Of a stretch of DNA of 22,098 bases, positions 2,116 through 20,586 are shown piece after piece. The first letter of the stretch is position 1, and the number at the start of each line of letters is the position of its first letter. The DNA comes from Syntrophus sp. (in: bacteria). Lineage in GTDB: Bacteria; Desulfobacterota; Syntrophorhabdia; Syntrophorhabdales; Syntrophorhabdaceae. Under the pieces are notes generated by a model, which ran no database searches, was not told the DNA's origin, and was given only the letters and a program-made list of their open reading frames with translations. Position numbers and translations under genes: made by a program. The stretch spans positions 1-22,098 of the forward strand of contig PNOM01000051.1 of NCBI GenBank assembly GCA_013824835.1. The letters are read 5' to 3'.

Positions 2116-4473
2116 ATGAAAGGTATTTTAAAATTAACGGCTTTGGTTGTCCTTATATTTTTAAGTTTTTTCAACACGGGTTTCGGCAAAACCTTCCCCC
2201 CGCCTGACAAGGCTGATGATCGCACCCTGTCCCCCTATTTCTTTGTAAAGAGTGACGACCCCAATGTGGATCAACTCCCCCTGAAATCTACTTCTGCGGC
2301 AGTCACCATCTCGGGCGTAATCGCCGGGGTCGAGGTTACTCAGGTTTATAAAAATGAAGGGAAAAGACCGCTGGAGGCCATCTACGTCTTTCCCGCTTCA
2401 ACAAGGGCCGCAGTGCACGGAATGAAGATGACTGTAGGCAAAAGGGTGATAAAGGCGCGGATCAGCAAGCGGGAGGATGCGCGCCAGGAGTACGAAAAGG
2501 CGCGGGAGCAGGGGAAAAGCGCCTCTCTTCTGGAGCAGCAGAGGCCAAATGTCTTTCAGATGAATGTGGCGAATATTATGCCCGGAGATGAGATAAAGGT
2601 CGAACTCCAATATACCGAATTACTTATACCCACAGACAGGATATATGGGTTTGTCTATCCCACTGTTGTAGGTCCCCGCTACTCCAATCAATCAGCGGAA
2701 ACCGCATCCCCTTCTGAACACTGGGTGCAGAATCCCTATCTCCGGAAGGGAGAAGCGCCTGCCAGTACCTTTGATATTACTGTGAATCTTTCAGTAGGAA
2801 TGCCCATTAAAGACCTCTCCTCAACATCCCACAAAGTGAAGACAACCTTTAGCGGGCCTTCTGCAGCAAAAATTGAGCTCGATAAATCGGAAGTATACGG
2901 CAGTAATCGAGACTATATACTCCGTTACCGCCTCGATGGAGAACAGATACAGTCCGGACTTCTCCTCTATGAAGGGGAAAAGGAAAACTTTTTTCTACTC
3001 ATGATGCAGCCCCCAAAGAGGATTACCAATGCCCAAATCCCTGGCCGTGAATATGTGTTCATCGTTGATGTATCCGGTTCCATGTATGGATTTCCCCTGG
3101 AAATTTCAAAGAAACTTATAAAAAACCTCATCAGCAATCTCCGCACAACAGACCGGTTTAATGTCCTTCTCTTTTCCGGCGGTTCGTCCCTTATGTCCGA
3201 AGAATCGCAGCCTGCAACCCAGGAAAATATCAATAAGGCAATCAATCTAATTGACCGGCAGAAGGGAGGAGGCAGCACCGAGCTTCTCCCCGCACTCTCG
3301 CGAGCCCTTAAACTTGCAAGACCGGAAGGTTTTTCCCGTACTATCGTGATTGCAACGGATGGATATGTTACCGTGGAAGAAGAGGTTTTTGATCTTATCA
3401 GGAACAATCTTAATAATGCAAATATTTTTGCCTTCGGGATTGGAACAAGCGTTAACCGTCACATCATCGAAGGGATGGCCCATGTTGGCATGGGTGAACC
3501 TTTTGTCATCACCAGAGCTGAAGATGCGCCTGCAAAGGCAGACTCCTTCCGCACCATGATTCAATCCCCGGTATTAACCCGTGTAAAGGCGCACTTCAAC
3601 GGTTTTACCACCTACGACGTGGAGCCTGTTGCGATCCCTGATGTTTTAGCTGAACGGCCCGTGATCCTCTTCGGGAAATGGCGTGGCGCCCTCCAGGGAA
3701 CAATCGCCTTGAGCGGCCTATCCGGCAACGGAGAGTACAGGGATACCATCAACGTATCGACAATAAAGCCCTCGAAGACAAACGCTGCCCTTGAATATCT
3801 CTGGGCCCGTTACCGGATCACCCTCCTCTCCGATTACAATAATCTCCGCTCCAACGACAAACGGATCAAGGAGATAACCGGACTCGGTCTTGCCTATAAC
3901 CTTTTGACCCAATACACCTCCTTTGTTGCCGTTGACTCAGAGGTGCGGAACAAAGATGGCAAAGTGGTTACAGTAAAACAGCCTCTCCCCATGCCACAGG
4001 GTGTTTCCGAATATGCGGTGGGCAATGGACAATACTATGGGATGGGCGGCGGAAGATCAGGCTATGCCTCTCATTACGCTGCGGCAAAAATAGCAAGACT
4101 TACAGAATATGAAGGAAAAGGACGGCAGGAGCAGTTCGTCGCAAAAGATGAGGGTAAACCAAAAAAGGCTGTCCGGATCGGAGACATAACTGTATCAGAA
4201 GGACTGTCCAAAGCAGCAGTTATGAATGCCCTGCAAAAGTATATTGAAGAGATTGAAAAGTATTGTAGTGGAAGCAGTCTTAAAGGGAAGCTTCTTATTC
4301 GTCTGGTCATCAGGAAGGATGGTTCGGTAAAGAATTTTGCTATTACCTCCAGCACTTTAAAGAACAGTGATGTCGAGAAATGGATTTCCACACAGATTAT
4401 GAAATGGCAGTTTCCCCCTATTCAGAATGGCCGGGAGGCTCATGTAACCATTCCCTTTCTCTTCGGGACGTAG
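2116..4473 (+). CDS. Secreted VIT-VWA domain protein with a C-terminal TonB-C-like domain
   Basis: Strong SD (AGGAGGT) and an N-terminal signal peptide. The N-terminal region is VIT-like (AIYVFPASTRAAVHGMKMTVG...YEKAREQGKSASLLEQ). A VWA domain with the MIDAS motif DVSGSM sits in VFIVDVSGSMYG, followed by TDGY. The C-terminal 80 aa are TonB_C-like (GKLLIRLVIRKDGSVKNFAITSS...EAHVTIPFLF). Confidence 0.8.
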   Translation: MKGILKLTALVVLIFLSFFNTGFGKTFPPPDKADDRTLSPYFFVKSDDPNVDQLPLKSTSAAVTISGVIAGVEVTQVYKNEGKRPLEAIYVFPASTRAAVHGMKMTVGKRVIKARISKREDARQEYEKAREQGKSASLLEQQRPNVFQMNVANIMPGDEIKVELQYTELLIPTDRIYGFVYPTVVGPRYSNQSAETASPSEHWVQNPYLRKGEAPASTFDITVNLSVGMPIKDLSSTSHKVKTTFSGPSAAKIELDKSEVYGSNRDYILRYRLDGEQIQSGLLLYEGEKENFFLLMMQPPKRITNAQIPGREYVFIVDVSGSMYGFPLEISKKLIKNLISNLRTTDRFNVLLFSGGSSLMSEESQPATQENINKAINLIDRQKGGGSTELLPALSRALKLARPEGFSRTIVIATDGYVTVEEEVFDLIRNNLNNANIFAFGIGTSVNRHIIEGMAHVGMGEPFVITRAEDAPAKADSFRTMIQSPVLTRVKAHFNGFTTYDVEPVAIPDVLAERPVILFGKWRGALQGTIALSGLSGNGEYRDTINVSTIKPSKTNAALEYLWARYRITLLSDYNNLRSNDKRIKEITGLGLAYNLLTQYTSFVAVDSEVRNKDGKVVTVKQPLPMPQGVSEYAVGNGQYYGMGGGRSGYASHYAAAKIARLTEYEGKGRQEQFVAKDEGKPKKAVRIGDITVSEGLSKAAVMNALQKYIEEIEKYCSGSSLKGKLLIRLVIRKDGSVKNFAITSSTLKNSDVEKWISTQIMKWQFPPIQNGREAHVTIPFLFGT

Positions 4474-4483
4474 CAAGACAATG

Positions 4484-4707
4484 TTTTTACACGGATGCAC
4501 ACGGATAAGAGCACGATGTATACGGATGAAAGCAGGGAGAAGCAGCCAATGTAGACGGCATCGGGATAACCCACCAATGCCGTCTACACACCACCCCGCC
4601 TGAAGGCGGAGAGGGATTGACCGGATATGCCTGTGTATCGCATATCCGGTCAAATACAAAGCCCATCTGCTTTTATCTGCCTTTATCCGTGTCCATCCGT
4701 GTAAAAT
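4484..4707. repeat. Structured intergenic element bounded by 24 bp imperfect inverted repeats with nested perfect hairpins (MITE-like, bidirectional terminator, or structured RNA)
   Basis: TTTTACACGGATGCACACGGATAA (4485-4508) has as reverse complement TTATCCGTGTCCATCCGTGTAAAA (4683-4706), with 1 mismatch. Internal hairpins: GTAGACGGCAT/ATGCCGTCTAC (4551-4587), CCGCC-TGAA-GGCGG (4596-4609), and a 14 bp perfect stem TTGACCGGATATGC/GCATATCCGGTCAA (4617-4653). The element lies between convergent genes. Confidence 0.5.
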
Positions 4708-4736
4708 AAAGTCTTTCCGGTTCTAAAAACAGCTTC

Positions 4737-4952
4737 TCACTTGCATTTCCTATACAAATCCTCAACCTTCTTTCTCGCCCATGGGGTTTTTCTCAGAAAC
4801 TTGAGACTCGATTTTATACTTGGATCATTATTAAAGCACTTGATATTAATGACTCTGCCCATTTTGTTCCACCCATAATGCTCAACAAGCCGGGTAAGCA
4901 TCATTTCCAGGGTAACCCCGTGGAGAGGGTCATGGAGGCGCTGATTTGTCAT
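4737..4952 (-). CDS. DUF2132 / VF530-family small conserved protein
   Basis: 71 aa with the characteristic DPLHGVTLE...LVEHYGW...[26 protein letters not shown] motif. An SD (AGAGGA) lies 7 nt upstream of the ATG on the minus strand. Confidence 0.75.
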
Positions 4953-5083
4953 GTCTTATCCTCTTTGATTCTTTCCCGCATTATAGCATTATTGCATCGC
5001 ACATACTAAATTTATGATTATTATGCATAAAACAGGTATTTTGAGTCGTCTATGGTTTAACCTATATAGGAGGTTTACCGTAT

Positions 5084-6259
5084 ATGAGGCTCCCTACGAG
5101 ACACGCGAAGAATCTGGTATTAATCATTCTAATGCTTATTTACCTGGTCCTGCTCATTCACTCCTATGCCCAAGCCGGGACGAAGGTAACGGAAGATAAC
5201 ACAAAACATAAGGCCACTCCCTCATCGTCGTTGAAAGTCGATATTATTGCTGAAGGAAAGGCACCCGTATCTGAGGACGAAGAAGAAGCAAAAAACACGG
5301 CAATTGAACATGCTAAAGATGTGGCCATCCTGAAAACAGCGGGTCATTTCGTAAATTCTGAGATCCTTCAGAAAGAACGAATAGTTCTTTTGAAAATATT
5401 TGCTTCAAGAAGAGATGAGATCATCGAAGACATCCGAATCCTTTCGGACCAGAAGACCGATGATGACTTTTACCGGATAAAGGCGGCCATTAAAGTGAGA
5501 AAAGACCTTGTGGAAGATGCCCTGATGAAAAATCTCTTCGATGACAGGGTAATCGTAATTGCCTCTGAGAAAAACAGCAAGAAAGCTCATACGCATTATA
5601 TATTCGAGAAGGAGCTCGTGAGGAGAATAAAGGGAAAGGGTTATACTGTTATTGACAGCAGTACCATGAAAAATAAGGCAACCAACAGCCTTATCGCTTC
5701 CGCCCGCCAGGGAAATCATGAGTCTCTCCGAAGGCTCGGAATCTATTGTCTGGCTGATGTGATTGTGGTTGGTTCTGTTGAGGCATCCTTCAGCGAAAAG
5801 ACCCAGGATATCTATTCATCCCGGGGAAAGGGGCTGGTCAGGATATATAGGATAGGGGATAAAAAAGAGATTGTCTCAGTCTCAAGACATGGCGTGAAGG
5901 GTTTCGGTTCTGATGAGGCCAAATCAGGCGTAGATGCAATCAGGCGGATATCACCCATGCTCGCAGATGAGGCGATAAAAGGCCTGCCTCCAAAACCTCT
6001 CAGGAAGGTTAAGGTATTCATAAAAGAGATTGAAAACCACGCATCCTTAGACAAGGCAAAAAGGATGCTCGCAGATATGCCGTACATAAGGGAGATAAAG
6101 AACGGTATTGCGGACATAAAAGGCGAAAAGGCTACGCTTTATATTAAAACGACAAAAAGCATTGATTATATTGTGAGAGAGATTGCTGAGCTTAAAAGAT
6201 TTGTCGTTACAAACGTTAAGGAATCCGTTATTTTTCTCGAAGCACGGAGGATAAATTAA
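5084..6259 (+). CDS. Secreted or periplasmic protein, with a possible LPP20/FlgP-like N-terminal domain
   Basis: Excellent SD (TAGGAGGT) 8 nt upstream, and a signal peptide or anchor (LVLIILMLIYLVLLIHSYAQA). The stretch KVDIIAEGKAPVSEDEEEAKNTAIEHAKDVAILKTAGHF resembles LPP20-family lipoproteins. Confidence 0.65.
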   Translation: MRLPTRHAKNLVLIILMLIYLVLLIHSYAQAGTKVTEDNTKHKATPSSSLKVDIIAEGKAPVSEDEEEAKNTAIEHAKDVAILKTAGHFVNSEILQKERIVLLKIFASRRDEIIEDIRILSDQKTDDDFYRIKAAIKVRKDLVEDALMKNLFDDRVIVIASEKNSKKAHTHYIFEKELVRRIKGKGYTVIDSSTMKNKATNSLIASARQGNHESLRRLGIYCLADVIVVGSVEASFSEKTQDIYSSRGKGLVRIYRIGDKKEIVSVSRHGVKGFGSDEAKSGVDAIRRISPMLADEAIKGLPPKPLRKVKVFIKEIENHASLDKAKRMLADMPYIREIKNGIADIKGEKATLYIKTTKSIDYIVREIAELKRFVVTNVKESVIFLEARRIN

Positions 6260-9092: not shown

Positions 9093-12000
9093 ATGGTCTG
9101 CACAAAATGTGGTAATAACAACACCGATGATGCGGTCTTTTGTGTAAGCTGCGGGGCAAATCTTACTGATCAGACCCCATCTCAAAAAAGGCCTGACAGC
9201 GGTTTTTCCCAGGACATTGACACTGCACCCGGAGACCCCTCTTCCCATGACAACCTCGACCGTCTCGCCCACACCTCTATAAAGGATAACCATGATGCCC
9301 GCGGTTCCGGAGGGGCCCGCATCCCTGCAAGAGAAGAGGGTCTTTTCTTTTCTGTAGGCTCCTTTTTTGCTTCCCGGTACGAGATTCTCTCAGAAGGGAA
9401 AAAGGGCGGCATGGGTGTTGTTTATAAGGTAAAAGATGCCAAGCTTAACAAAATAAAGGCTTTGAAGGTTATCCATCCGAGGCTCTTATCCTCCCCCCAG
9501 GCCCTGTCACGATTCAGGCAGGAAGTCTCCTTATCCCAGGATCTCCACCACCTCAATATTGTAAGTGTCTATGATCTTGATGAATACCATGGAAGAGAGT
9601 TTTTCACCATGGAGTGGATAGAAGGACCATCCTTAAGGGAACTCCTCGCAGAGAGGAGGAAGGAACATAAGCCTTTCACCCTGGAGGAAGCCTGTGCCAT
9701 CATTTCCCAGCTTTCCGATGCCCTCTCTTATGCCCATCAATACACCATCCATCGGGATATTAAACCGGAGAATATATTAGTACAGAGGTCAGCAACCAGC
9801 AATCAGAAAACAAGAGAGACCATCCCCACCATTCCCCCTTTCGCAAAGGGGGAATTTATCCTCAAATTAACCGACTTTGGCATTGCCAAGATGCTCTCCC
9901 CGGCAGAGCTCATTACCACATCCCTTCAGATGGGTACTCCCTACTACATGGCGCCGGAGCAGAAGCTTGATGCTGCACATGTTGACCATAGAGCTGATAT
10001 CTATGCAGCAGGGGTAGTGTTCTTTGAACTTCTTACCTTAGAGAACACCATAGGGCCTGATCTTCCCAGTGAACTCAATTGTGCTGTCCCAAAAGAAGTA
10101 GATGGCATCTACCGGAAAGCGGTTGCGACAAAACCGGAGAACCGATGGGGAGAGGTAAGGGAACTATCTCAAGCCCTCCACACCATAATTATCGCGGAGA
10201 GGAGAAAGAGTGAGGAGGGGGTATGGAAGGAGGGATGGCATAGGAAAACCGATGCCAAAGAGAGAACAGGAAAAGAGACGGGAGAGGTTGGAAGGAAGAC
10301 GATTGAGAATGAATGTCTCACGGTGGAAACTGAAGAGACAGAGTTGAGAAGGTTGGGGGAAGAGAGACTTCGCACAGAAAACAAAGAGAAAAAAAGAGCG
10401 GAAGAAGAGAAGAATAGAATCGAAGAGGAGGGACTGCGCAAGGAAACAGAGGAAAGGAGGCGGAAAGAAGAGGAAAAGCGCCTCCTGAGGGAACAGGAGG
10501 AGGCTGAAAAACAGATTCTGACGGATGAACTCAAGGGACAGAAAGAAAGATCAAGAAAGCGATCAAGGATTATTCTTATTAGTTTCTGCATCTTTGGGGC
10601 AATGGTGCTCCTTGCGTCGGCTATCGGATATGTCTCCTACCGCCACGCACAGCAGCAGGTTGTCCTAACCCGGCAGCTTGAAAAAGAGAAAAGGGAAAAA
10701 GAACAATTAACAGAAAGGCAGAAGGCGATAGAAGCAAAACAGCAGGCAGACCTGCAGAGGCTGGAAGAACAAAGGAAACATGAAGATCGAAAAATATATG
10801 TTGATGAGAAAAAACAGGAAGGCCGGATAAAACAAGGGCAGTTGCTTCTTCGGAAGGCTCGGGCTTCTATAAAAAAGGGAAACCTCTCAGATGCACGAAG
10901 TTATCTCGAAGAGGCAAAGGGGTTTATTCCGGATGATAAGAATGTTGTAAGTATGGCCAATATCATTGAGAATGAAGAGAAAAAACAGAAAGTTGCTGTA
11001 GACAGGCAGCGCCAGTATGAGGAGGAAAAACGGGCAGAAGAACAAAAACGGGCAGAAGAACAAAAACGGGCAGAAGAACAAAAAAGAAAAGAAGCAGAAG
11101 AAAAAAGGGTTGCTGAAGAACAAAGGCTTGCAAGAGAGCGAAAGATTGCAGAGGAACAAAAAGTTGCAAGGGAACGAAAGGCAGAGGAGGAACGAAGGCT
11201 TGCAGAACAGAAAAGACAGAAGGAAGAACAAAGGCTTGCAAGAGAGCGAAAGGCGGCGGAAGAGCTTGCCGAAAAACAGAGAGCTGCTGAAGCTAAATGG
11301 CAGGGGGGTATAATAAAACTGAATTACACTAATTTTTTCCCGGCTACACACCTTCAAAGCATCACTGCAGAGAAATGGTGCCGGGAAATAGAGAAAAAGA
11401 CCCGTAACAGGATTAAATTTGCCTATTATCCGGGAGGCGCCCTTACGCCGCCGCCTCAAACCTATGATGCCGTTGTGAAGGGTACTGCCGACATTGGAAT
11501 GAGTGTTTTTGCCTATACAAAAGGAAGATTCCCCCTCACGGAAGTTATTGATCTGCCCCTTGGTTATCGGAGCGGTCTTGTGGCAACAAGGCTGATAAAT
11601 GAATACTACAAAAGGTTTCGACCCAATGAGCTTGGTGATGTTAAAGTGCTTTATCTCCATGCTCATGGTCCGGGAATATTGCATACAAAGAGCCCTGTAT
11701 ACAGGCTTGAAGACTTGAGTGGCATGAAAATAAGAGCTACAGGACCGGCAGCAAAAATTGCGCCCGCCCTTGGGGCTGCGCCTGTGGCCATATCGATGCC
11801 GGAGGCATATGACGCCCTCCGCACCGGTGTTGCAGAGGGGGCTTTTGTTCCCATTGAGGCCCTCCTGGGCTGGAAATGGGGTGAAGTTATAAATTCGACA
11901 ACCCAATGTTTCGGCGTTGCATATTCAATCGGCATGTTTGTTGTGATGAATAAAACAAAGTGGAATTCCCTTCCCCCGGATATTCAAAGGATTTTTGAAC

Positions 12001-12245
12001 AGGTCAGCGCCGAATGGATAGAAGTTCAGGGCAGGGCATGGGATGAAATAGACAAAAAGGGGAGAGAATTTACTTTAAGAAGGGGTAATAAACTTATTCC
12101 CTTATCTCAAGAGGAAGATGCACGATGGACTGCAAGAGTACGGCCACTCCTTGATGAATATGTAAGAAATACAAGATCAAAGGGGCTTCCTGGAGATGAA
12201 GCATTGAAATTCTGCCTTGATTACCTTGCCAGGCATAAGAGATGA
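9093..12245 (+). CDS. Ser/Thr protein kinase with an N-terminal zinc ribbon, one TM segment, a KE-rich helical stalk and a C-terminal DctP/TRAP-type solute-binding domain
   Basis: The zinc ribbon is CTKCGNNNTDDAVFCVSCG. Kinase motifs are GKKGGMGVVYKV, ALKVI, HRDIKPENILV, DFGIAK and PYYMAPE. The TM helix is IILISFCIFGAMVLLASAIGYV (about nt 10566-10635). KE-rich repeats include EEQKRAEEQKRAEEQKR. The C-terminal domain resembles DctP (IKLNYTNFFPATHLQS...KFAYYPGGAL...DAVVKGTADIGMSVFAYTKGRFPLTEVIDLPLGY ... ALRTGVAEGAFVPIEALLGWKWGEV). Confidence 0.85.
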   Translation: MVCTKCGNNNTDDAVFCVSCGANLTDQTPSQKRPDSGFSQDIDTAPGDPSSHDNLDRLAHTSIKDNHDARGSGGARIPAREEGLFFSVGSFFASRYEILSEGKKGGMGVVYKVKDAKLNKIKALKVIHPRLLSSPQALSRFRQEVSLSQDLHHLNIVSVYDLDEYHGREFFTMEWIEGPSLRELLAERRKEHKPFTLEEACAIISQLSDALSYAHQYTIHRDIKPENILVQRSATSNQKTRETIPTIPPFAKGEFILKLTDFGIAKMLSPAELITTSLQMGTPYYMAPEQKLDAAHVDHRADIYAAGVVFFELLTLENTIGPDLPSELNCAVPKEVDGIYRKAVATKPENRWGEVRELSQALHTIIIAERRKSEEGVWKEGWHRKTDAKERTGKETGEVGRKTIENECLTVETEETELRRLGEERLRTENKEKKRAEEEKNRIEEEGLRKETEERRRKEEEKRLLREQEEAEKQILTDELKGQKERSRKRSRIILISFCIFGAMVLLASAIGYVSYRHAQQQVVLTRQLEKEKREKEQLTERQKAIEAKQQADLQRLEEQRKHEDRKIYVDEKKQEGRIKQGQLLLRKARASIKKGNLSDARSYLEEAKGFIPDDKNVVSMANIIENEEKKQKVAVDRQRQYEEEKRAEEQKRAEEQKRAEEQKRKEAEEKRVAEEQRLARERKIAEEQKVARERKAEEERRLAEQKRQKEEQRLARERKAAEELAEKQRAAEAKWQGGIIKLNYTNFFPATHLQSITAEKWCREIEKKTRNRIKFAYYPGGALTPPPQTYDAVVKGTADIGMSVFAYTKGRFPLTEVIDLPLGYRSGLVATRLINEYYKRFRPNELGDVKVLYLHAHGPGILHTKSPVYRLEDLSGMKIRATGPAAKIAPALGAAPVAISMPEAYDALRTGVAEGAFVPIEALLGWKWGEVINSTTQCFGVAYSIGMFVVMNKTKWNSLPPDIQRIFEQVSAEWIEVQGRAWDEIDKKGREFTLRRGNKLIPLSQEEDARWTARVRPLLDEYVRNTRSKGLPGDEALKFCLDYLARHKR
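11041..11094 (+). repeat. Perfect 3 x 18 bp in-frame tandem repeat (ACGGGCAGAAGAACAAAA, encoding RAEEQK) inside the kinase stalk
   Basis: Three identical 18 bp units are seen directly. Degenerate 36 bp repeats of about 180 bp follow (11095-11275) and encode (AEEQRLARERK)n. TTGCAAGAGAGCGAAAG occurs twice. Confidence 0.9.
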
Positions 12246-19240: not shown

Positions 19241-19531
19241 ATGAACCTTGTAAATCTATTGAAAGAAAAACGAGTCGCGATACTGGCCACGGCGAAACGG
19301 CACGGCGCCCGGCACGTGAGAATCTTCGGATCTGTTGCACGAGGTGATTTTGACGAAAAAAGCGATCTGGATTTTCTTGTAGAAATGGAACCTGGCAGAA
19401 GCCTTCTTGACCGTGCCGCCCTCCTGCTCGATTTAGAGAAACTTCTTGGATGCAAGGTTGATGTAGTGAGCGACAAAGGGATAAAATCTCGTATGCGTGA
19501 ACGTGTGTTCAGGGAGGTTCAACCGTTATGA
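19241..19531 (+). CDS. mntA: MntA-type nucleotidyltransferase antitoxin (type VII TA)
   Basis: GSVARGDFDEKSDLDFLV is the Pol-beta NTase motif (GS...D.D). The stop overlaps the hepT start (ATGA). Confidence 0.85.
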   Translation: MNLVNLLKEKRVAILATAKRHGARHVRIFGSVARGDFDEKSDLDFLVEMEPGRSLLDRAALLLDLEKLLGCKVDVVSDKGIKSRMRERVFREVQPL

Positions 19532-19879
19532 GAAATAATAGCGAGCGTGTCCTTGACATGCTGGAGGATATTGAGCACATTGAACGATATTCAGAAAAAG
19601 GACCCGATGTTTTCAAAAAAGATGAACTTATACAGACCTGGGTTGTATATCATCTTCAGATTATCGGCGAAGCGGCATCAAAACTGGGCCATGCTTTTCA
19701 TGACACCTACCCGGAAACCCCATCCTCAGATCATTGCCATGCGGAATTTGCTCACTCACGAATACTTTGGAGTTGACCTCGACGAAGTCTGGCAGGTCGT
19801 GGAGCGCGATTTGCCAACATTAAAACAAAGACTGCACAGAATAAGTGAGGAACTTTGTCCGCCGAGCAATCATGATTAA
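19528..19879 (+). pseudogene. hepT: HepT (DUF86) RNase toxin, disrupted by a +1 frameshift
   Basis: The N-terminal half is in frame 1 (LEDIEHIERY...YHLQIIGEAASKL...YPETP). The C-terminal half carries the Rx4HxY active-site motif (RNLLTHEYFGVD) and is in frame 2. The switch is at the CCCC run at 19718-19721. Removing one C gives a continuous YPETHPQIIAMRNLLTHEYFGVD. Confidence 0.75.
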
Positions 19880-19992: not shown

Positions 19993-20586
19993 ATGAGAGA
20001 CAAATATTATTCTGATGACAGAGATCTCGTGAAGTGGGCAATCTTGGCCCATATTGCGTCAAAATATAGGTTGCAGACAATCCTTCAGGTTCCATACTGG
20101 CGACGAGAGCCTGCCTATCCGCATTTGAACTTTATGGGAAATAGCGTGACAGTATCGGGCAAGGTGTGGGGGTTCTTTCGCAACATTCACAGCGTTACTC
20201 GATTGGGACCAGAGATAGGGACCTCGATAGTTGTTGTTGAAACCGAGTTCGATCCAAACCGGCGAGGTGACTATCTTTCGGTGGTCAAGGCAAGGATTCA
20301 GCAAGCAAGGCGACCTCTCGTACTCTTTCTCGACCCAGATACTGGTTTGCAACCCGCCAATTGTCGTCCCGAACATACGGCGATTGAAGAAATAGATGCT
20401 CTGTGGCCTGTTCTCAAACCTCACGAATGGTTGGTTCTATATCAACACGCACGCCACAGCCCCAATTGGAGGGAATCCGTGGCCGATCAACTGTCATCTT
20501 TGTGCAACAACAGGGATGCCCATGTTGTCCGGTCAAATGACGTAGGAAAAGATGTTGCATTTATTTGCGTTGAAAAAATGGCATAA
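19993..20586 (+). CDS. Hypothetical protein in the R-M/TA island (function unknown)
   Basis: 197 aa ORF with higher GC than the flanking region and no motif I can assign. It contains LVLFLDPDTGLQP. It lies between the TA pair and the REase. Confidence 0.5.
   Translation: MRDKYYSDDRDLVKWAILAHIASKYRLQTILQVPYWRREPAYPHLNFMGNSVTVSGKVWGFFRNIHSVTRLGPEIGTSIVVVETEFDPNRRGDYLSVVKARIQQARRPLVLFLDPDTGLQPANCRPEHTAIEEIDALWPVLKPHEWLVLYQHARHSPNWRESVADQLSSLCNNRDAHVVRSNDVGKDVAFICVEKMA

Follow-up and report, generated by a model that had tools for sequence, protein, structure and literature searches.

The closest analogues of the element described here are REPIN/RAYT systems, in which repetitive extragenic palindromic (REP) sequences form hairpin doublets (REPINs) alongside the gene for a REP-associated tyrosine transposase (RAYT), and miniature inverted-repeat transposable elements (MITEs) such as Correia, enterobacterial repetitive intergenic consensus (ERIC), and Nezha sequences. 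The former occur between genes as short palindromic doublets in high copy number, with an associated gene that is itself flanked by the repeats; the latter are noncoding intergenic sequences of ~200 bp that have terminal inverted repeats and are deletion derivatives of longer, gene-carrying elements with the same ends. An element resembling both lies at positions 4485–4706 of a 22,098-nt contig from a metagenome-assembled genome (MAG) labelled Syntrophus sp.; we refer to this whole contig as the window. The element is 222 bp long, sits inside a 263-nt intergenic region, and is probably a nonautonomous copy, lacking an open reading frame (ORF), of a palindromic repeat element whose gene-carrying relatives encode a GxxExxY protein.

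There are differences from each of these systems. Membership of the REPIN/RAYT group fails because the associated protein has a PD-(D/E)XK fold (GxxExxY) and is not a Y1 HUH transposase. In addition, the arms of the element are arrays of 10-nt direct repeats, whereas a REP is a single hairpin carrying GTAG on its 5′ side; the arm motif is kept across phyla, unlike the species-specific REP sequences; and GxxExxY genes are often multicopy. Unlike MITEs, the parent element here is without a recognised DDE transposase and encodes the nuclease-fold protein instead, its interior is a conserved, covarying hairpin module and not arbitrary filler, and no target-site duplication was found for it. Palindrome-associated transposable elements (PATEs) of the IS200/IS605 type also keep subterminal hairpins in their gene-less derivatives, and a role for hairpins in single-stranded DNA is possible in both; however, they use TnpA, an HUH enzyme, and have no terminal inverted repeats, neither of which holds here, and we rejected this assignment on its defining features. 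The intervening sequences (IVSs) of 23S rRNA and free-standing homing-endonuclease genes likewise place a small selfish ORF, coding for a small nuclease, in a long stem of inverted flanks, and RNase III-type excision of the insert from a host transcript is conceivable. Unlike an IVS, the element is not in rRNA, and a search of Rfam 15 at gathering thresholds, one of the checks suggested at the outset, returned no rRNA or other family in the whole window or in 16 member loci; unlike homing-endonuclease genes, it has no intron or intein context or recognizable homing site that we could find.

Structure and conservation of the element

The element begins with the 24-mer TTTTACACGGATGCACACGGATAA (4485–4508, forward strand), whose inverted partner at 4683–4706 on the reverse strand matches at 23 of 24 positions (none expected from 100 shuffles). 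A repeat finder extends these terminal inverted repeats to 29 nt with 90% complementarity (4485–4513 and 4678–4706). Each arm is built of four units of 10 to 11 nt with the form nnCACGGATGn or its complement, a periodicity not noticed in the initial annotation. On the forward strand, the 5′ arm (4485–4548) comprises ACACGGATGC, ACACGGATAA, GAGCACGATG, and TATACGGATG, which read ACACGGATGn with GAT starting at 4494, 4504, 4515, and 4525, and it closes with a degenerate extension paired with the 3′ arm; the 3′ arm (4654–4706) is the complement, with ATC starting at 4665, 4675, 4685, and 4695. The duplex formed between the arms has an energy of −50 kcal/mol (z = −9.3).

Between the arms are three hairpins, again given for the forward strand. 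HP1 (4550–4588) has a perfect 12-bp stem, TGTAGACGGCAT/ATGCCGTCTACA (repeat-finder pair 4550–4564 and 4574–4588), and a loop containing GATAAC where the family consensus is GATAGAyC. HP2 (4596–4609) reads CCGCC-TGAA-GGCGG (repeat-finder pair 4591–4601 and 4604–4614), and across the family it has a stem of 5 to 6 bp and a loop centred on GAA. HP3 (4617–4653) has a perfect 14-bp stem, TTGACCGGATATGC (4617–4630) and GCATATCCGGTCAA (4640–4653), which are 100% complementary and enclose the loop CTGTGTATC. The predicted fold of the 263-nt region has an energy of −115.9 kcal/mol on the forward strand and −125.6 kcal/mol on the reverse, against −65 and −74 kcal/mol for dinucleotide shuffles; z is about −11 on either strand, and none of 200 shuffles equals it. 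The element of roughly 225 bp that the initial annotation had outlined, with its 24-bp terminal repeats, three internal hairpins, and far more structure than a terminator between convergent genes would require, is thus borne out with a slightly smaller length and longer arms.

The same architecture recurs elsewhere, as would be expected of the MITE or REP-like identity that had been suggested from the window alone. Syntrophorhabdus aromaticivorans UI (locus L039) aligns with the window across the whole element and has four near-identical copies of the same architecture within 8 kb, one of them split by an insertion sequence. The split copy (L039 4370–5020) is interrupted between ...CATCCCTT and CTTCATCC..., and by eye the insertion seems to code for the C-terminal portion of a transposase with an integrase core (rve type); the L039 arrays have runs of N on either side, which suggests that the repeats break assemblies. 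When metagenomes were scanned with TTGACCGGATNTGN{10,24}CCGGTCAAA, a pattern for HP3, 46 loci came back; about 30 of them are true members flanked by arms of 10-nt units, and these come for the most part from bioreactors or digesters and from sediments. Members share a fixed order, which in the window's forward orientation is 5′ arm, HP1, a further hairpin HPx that is not in the window, HP2, GG-HP3, and 3′ arm. The HP1 stem is variable, and HP3 follows TTGACCGGATrTG...CTATC...CCGGTCAAA. With HP1 (GATAGA-type loop), HP2, and HP3 (TTGACCGG...CTATC...CCGGTCAA) in this order between its arms, the window copy belongs to this Syntrophorhabdus-type subfamily. In each of the 24 members examined the two arms pair with each other (median z −5.7), and GAT and ATC motifs recur in them every 10 to 11 nt.

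A covariance model of the core, built with 14 diverse members as seed and the window left out, matches the window at 4545–4659 on the forward strand with 69.2 bits (E about 5e-15); the match spans model positions 1–138 with HPx deleted, and the ORF of the full-length relatives is also absent. On the reverse strand of the window there is only a 22.6-bit partial match. The model has no matches in 1.44 Mb of other arm-bearing loci, used as a negative control, and the core is therefore specific to a lineage, of the Syntrophorhabdus/Syntrophus type. In the alignment to this model (32 matches, 26 distinct rows), 85.9% of cells are paired, compared with 29–38% when the 3′ partners are slid, and 25 pairs have changes on both sides, compared with 5–10; none of 500 shuffles attains either value, so that the covariation proposed as a check is present. 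Covarying pairs fall in HP1 (13 of 15), HPx (4 of 5), and HP2 (5 of 6). The invariance of the HP3 outer stem is in part due to ascertainment, because the search pattern selects it, and a full-length copy (L188) has TTGATCGG/CCGATCAA at this stem, a double change.

Copies sharing a contig are always co-oriented (four each in L039, L229, and L197, and three each in L188 and L216), at least partly because of tandem or segmental duplication. The array copies are separated by purine-rich spacers of ~10-nt units (GGCGGGAAAG, GCGAGACGGG, and GCAGAGGCAAAAG), seen at L039 3820–3880, 4112–4180, 5080–5170, and 5400–5470 and in the flanks of L191, L198, L209, L213, and L217. The spacers flank copies on the same strand at both sides and are thus direct, not inverted, repeats, and AAAAAGTAGACGGGCGGGAAAGG is conserved directly after the 3′ arm.

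GxxExxY genes and the arm repeat across phyla

Two members of the hairpin-core subfamily carry a gene. Locus L197 (914–1545) reads 5′ arm, HP1, HPx, GAGAGG, a 132-aa GxxExxY ORF, HP2, HP3, and 3′ arm, with the TGA stop codon of the ORF lying within the TTGACCGG segment of HP3; in L188 (reverse strand, about 700–75) the parts follow one another in the same way, and the ORF is 137 aa long. The full-length layout puts a Shine-Dalgarno sequence and a gene of ~130 codons between HPx and HP2. ORF-less members are in the large majority, at ~35 to ~2 in this subfamily and more than 10:1 in the list of covariance-model matches. The window copy keeps both arms, HP1, HP2, and HP3, and it is because HPx and the GxxExxY gene are missing, and the full-length relatives carry the gene, that we regard it as a likely nonautonomous derivative of the MITE or REPIN kind.

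The arms have a much wider distribution than the core. In a scan of one genome per species (596 Gb), ACACGGATGNACACGGAT matched at least 120 genome loci, drawn from no fewer than 12 bacterial phyla. By our own arithmetic, a 17-base pattern would be expected to match roughly 70 times by chance in this amount of sequence; the matches are mostly real members, not chance ones, because they have a third in-register unit (in about 60–80% of cases), a sharp boundary, and, for the most part, inverted partners. Among 140 oriented instances, the third unit, CCACGGATG, lies upstream at 56–79% per position, the outer boundary is sharp at AACCAC (consensus tttgAACCACGGATGrACACGGATGrACACGGATaaa), and most loci have an inverted partner 20 to 450 nt away. 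By record title, the loci come from Verrucomicrobiota, Planctomycetota, Acidobacteriota, Alpha-, Beta-, and Gammaproteobacteria, Desulfobacterota ("Deltaproteobacteria"), Bacteroidota, Chloroflexota, Nitrospirota, Chlamydiota, Saccharibacteria, Hydrogenedentota, Tectomicrobia, and others. The same pattern is found at 65 loci on IMG/VR viral contigs, some of which (in the set L121–L185) have four arm matches, such as IMGVR_UViG_3300017747_004718 and 3300037067_012809. A highly specific pattern for the window's own arm gave no matches in metagenomes.

As in REPIN/RAYT systems, where gene-less copies are far commoner, 91 of 133 arm pairs have interiors shorter than 100 nt: 63 are below 50 nt and 28 are between 50 and 100 nt, with 23 pairs at 100 to 300 nt and six at 300 to 500 nt. 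All six pairs with interiors of 370 to 415 nt enclose a GxxExxY ORF of ~125 aa, and L102 is a seventh example. The enclosed ORFs match TIGR04256 ("GxxExxY protein") with E values of about 1e-36 to 1e-38, and the proteins of the subfamily match PF13366 (PDDEXK_3, the PD-(D/E)XK nuclease fold) at about 1e-40. In several members the ORF begins within the arm itself, the ATG of ACACGG-ATG-AAC giving the peptide (T)RMNTDEHG. At least 7,996 homologues pass an E value of 1e-5 (8,000 candidates scored); among the matches listed, identities are 64–79% if the query itself and one fragment are set aside, and the proteins include some named from Geobacteraceae, Tectomicrobia, and Armatimonadota. The family has no solved structure detectable by sequence search and is not in PADLOC. 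In a peat metagenome (L235), found via the protein, the gene is bracketed by the variant arms CCGCCGATGCACGCGGATGCACGCCGAT and ATCGGCGTGAATCGGCGTGAATCGGCGG and lies between two FtsX permease genes. No four-helix-bundle proteins, as in 23S rRNA IVSs, were seen as other cargo among the arm pairs, and searches of the literature on these proteins and on Syntrophorhabdus repeats found nothing relevant.

Beside or inside CACGGAT-type palindromes there is a second family of short periodic repeats, with units CGCAGAG/CTCTGCG or CGCGGAG, at loci L056, L060, L050, L093, L048, L090, and L038 of Verrucomicrobiota, Tectomicrobia, and Hyphomicrobiales, and several arm "dialects" may exist. An expanded one-sided arm array is seen in L085 (5037–5175), where ~15 tandem 10-nt units (CATCCGTGT/CTTCCGTGT) run to the contig end. 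The repeat strings have no match in the literature searched, which largely lacks papers from subscription journals, and an earlier description is possible.

Proposed insertion at the present site and competing explanations

The window copy belongs to a GxxExxY-associated palindromic element family, with hairpins that are conserved and covary, many copies in other genomes and contexts, and gene-carrying relatives that have the same noncoding parts. Its mobility, the role of the nuclease, and the level, RNA or DNA, at which the hairpins act are inferred. The family is probably selfish DNA. We propose that the element reached its present site by insertion, and that a GxxExxY nuclease whose gene lies elsewhere in the genome propagates it in trans, or formerly did so. 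The arms' periodic CGGAT units would serve as cis sites for the GxxExxY protein or for host machinery, and the conserved HP1 and HP3 sequences, with the loops GATAGA and TCTATC and the stem TTGACCGG, could be further such sites. Any influence of the element, where it now lies, on the 3′ ends of the two convergent transcripts would be incidental.

A broader proposal is that inverted arrays of 10-bp CGGAT repeats and the GxxExxY nuclease form an unrecognised class of mobile or homing element, mobilized by a protein of restriction-endonuclease fold and not by a DDE, HUH, tyrosine, or serine enzyme, and spread over more than 12 bacterial phyla and viral contigs, with gene-less derivatives that retain lineage-specific HP1, HP2, and HP3 hairpins for propagation or RNA processing. 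We offer this proposal tentatively, as possible more than likely. Recognition of such an element would give the GxxExxY family a testable role, as proteins that bind or cut the arms of 10-bp repeats or the HP1 and HP3 hairpins, and would add a candidate that is neither DDE nor HUH to the selfish elements of bacteria. It would also explain the otherwise puzzling 263-bp convergent intergenic region of the window. Marking these repeats would improve the annotation of MAGs, in which they are now unmarked or called as spurious ORFs (with peptides such as TRMNTDEHG and IRVHPW); they probably break assemblies and seed false genes.

The genes on either side of the element are convergent. A VIT/VWA gene (2116–4473, forward strand), the last of an extracytoplasmic function (ECF) sigma/anti-sigma/VIT-VWA group, has its stop codon 11 nt before the element, and a VF530 (DUF2132) gene (4737–4952, reverse strand) ends 30 nt after it. 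The closest VIT/VWA homologue is 72% identical and the rest are 63–69% identical, several of them labelled Syntrophorhabdus, and the relatives have other downstream neighbors; the closest VF530 homologues (80–88% identity) are in other gene contexts. The covariance model finds no match downstream of six related VIT/VWA genes, two of which are in the same ECF sigma/anti-sigma/VIT operon, and there are no arm units in the two downstream regions that we read (L240 and L244). The element thus does not belong to that operon as a conserved 3′ part, and here it has the look of an insertion specific to this lineage. As to the host, the label Syntrophus sp. may be loose: several of the top named VIT/VWA homologues are from Syntrophorhabdus, and so is the sole isolate with the same element subfamily.

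Several observations weigh against reading the element as a mobile one served by the nuclease. The window, searched over its full 22 kb, holds one copy of the element, and a GxxExxY hidden Markov model finds neither a gene nor a remnant in the element or in any ORF of the window. Several multicopy contigs resemble tandem or segmental duplications, with near-identical spacers in the L039 array; in L229, the copies at 248–384 and 1542–1684 are identical in their 3′ arms and have at least 40 nt of flank downstream in common, which points to segmental duplication of a ~1.3-kb unit and not to independent insertions. Part of the copy number thus needs no transposition. In Geomobilimonas luticola (L234, also found via the protein), an arm hairpin follows the gene and does not bracket it, and a second arm hairpin comes after the decayed remnant of a gene upstream. 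GxxExxY proteins are not known as transposases, and the searchable literature, which includes few subscription journals, reports no activity and describes no mobile role for these proteins, mentioning GxxExxY or PF13366 only in passing. Neither a target-site duplication nor a filled and empty orthologous pair was found, the VF530 and VIT/VWA relatives being nonsyntenic or at most 72% identical; the flanks read ...TGTTTT-TA|CACGG...CCGTG|TA-AAATAA, so that a TA duplication is possible, but TTTTA/TAAAA belongs to the palindrome itself. A duplication is not assertable because there is no true orthologous empty site among the relatives compared.

The alternative that survives best is that the element is a structured noncoding RNA serving the host, either a small RNA or an element within the 3′ untranslated region of the VIT/VWA mRNA, transcribed on the forward strand, in which the arm stem would close a three- or four-way junction while the loops of HP1 and HP3 kiss. 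We consider this unlikely, although the strong covariation of the stems, the fixed orientation relative to the GxxExxY ORF in full-length members, and a start only 11 nt from the VIT/VWA stop codon, without an intervening terminator, all agree with it. Wobble pairs, which could point to a transcribed strand, number 36 G·U and 31 A·C overall and pick neither. By helix, the G·U to A·C counts of HP3 (10:1, in the inner stem) and HP2 (14:4) lean to the forward strand, whereas those of HP1 (9:17) and HPx (3:9) lean to the other, and the G·U cells of HP2 are mostly alignment artefacts in Syntrophorhabdus-type rows. A "UUCG tetraloop" in HPx was rejected as evidence of strand, the hairpin being GCUGC-UUC-GCAGC, a triloop. 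The HP1 and HP3 loops do carry conserved complementary hexamers, GAUAGA and UCUAUC, which are paired in 87.5% of cells, but the mean run length of loop-loop pairing is 6.65 as observed and 6.66 with partners shuffled among members; there is thus no covariation beyond conservation, which speaks against a kissing loop, and in the window the match is only GAUA/UAUC, four contiguous pairs. Copies have no orientation bias relative to flanking ORFs (as found with a crude ORF caller), occur in tandem arrays and beside unrelated genes, and are absent from the related VIT/VWA loci, and the lack of an Rfam match extends to a permissive search of 4300–5100, which gave chance-level matches only (the best being CsrC on the reverse strand, at 11 bits against a gathering threshold of 279, E = 2.4).

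An RNA role for the element's own gene is compatible with our preferred explanation, a nonautonomous copy of a selfish palindromic element. By analogy with rRNA intervening sequences, the arm stem could be an RNase III substrate that frees the cassette from host transcripts. The 10- to 11-bp phasing of the conserved CGGAT would place these sites on one face of B-form DNA and fits recognition of the duplex by a protein; duplex recognition and RNase III processing are not mutually exclusive.

Slightly less probable again is a long bidirectional terminator or transcript-stabilizing palindrome, REP-like in function, immobile, and without a link to the nuclease, the fallback named in the initial annotation. 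The convergent gene setting and the very stable fold on both strands would suit such a function, but no intrinsic terminator (a GC-rich stem followed by a U-tract) is found on either strand in 4200–5100, a region that also has no notable promoter-like sites, and the tract after HP3 is A-rich. This module, conserved in its loop and stem sequences, recurs in many settings unrelated to one another and encloses a nuclease gene, and neither the 10-nt periodicity of the arms nor the conserved loops would be needed for termination.

We think it very improbable that the element is an integron attC-type site or the target of another site-specific recombinase marking gene cassettes. The tandem arrays and imperfect palindromes recall such sites, as do the ends of some Syntrophorhabdus-type copies (TTTTAAC...GTTAAAA), which resemble RYYYAAC/GTTRRRY cores. 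These AAC/GTT cores are missing, however, in the window (TTTTTAC...GTAAAA) and in many other copies (such as L187 and L205), the size and conserved internal hairpins are unlike attC, no integrase lies beside the arrays in the loci read, and these arms also form isolated hairpins in different phyla. The least credible alternative is an RNA that titrates CsrA/RsmA through its ACAcGGAUG units, which resemble the consensus RUACARGGAUGU obtained for CsrA by systematic evolution of ligands by exponential enrichment (SELEX); this idea, to which the CsrC match adds nothing above chance level, is rejected because the GGA motifs are base-paired in the arms and not in loops and many units of the family lack GGA (CAGAT, GCTGAT, and CGCCGAT). 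A retron msr-msd was likewise rejected, the flanking genes being VIT/VWA and VF530 and no reverse transcriptase domain being found in Pfam scans of the window ORFs.

Other features of the window

Two antisense ORFs overlap the element (4357–4659 and 4074–4391) and have no Pfam match, in line with the earlier advice that they are spurious. At 11026–11252 are tandem repeats of 18 and 36 nt, with AAAAACGGGCAGAAGAAC repeated 3.3 times at 100% identity and then 36-nt units, ranging from perfect to degenerate. They are in frame within a 1,050-aa ORF (9093–12245) that fuses zinc-ribbon, Ser-Thr kinase, and DctP-type solute-binding domains, and they probably encode a charged, low-complexity linker.

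Toward the end of the contig, at 19241–19776, an MntA-like nucleotidyltransferase ORF (96 aa) overlaps a HepT-like RNase ORF, which is only 82 aa long, matches profile positions 1–47 of 120, and may be the truncated toxin of a HEPN/MNT toxin-antitoxin pair. A 197-aa ORF without a Pfam match (19993–20586) adjoins a final ORF at the contig end (20706–21299), which codes for a BglII-like restriction endonuclease (E = 6e-44).

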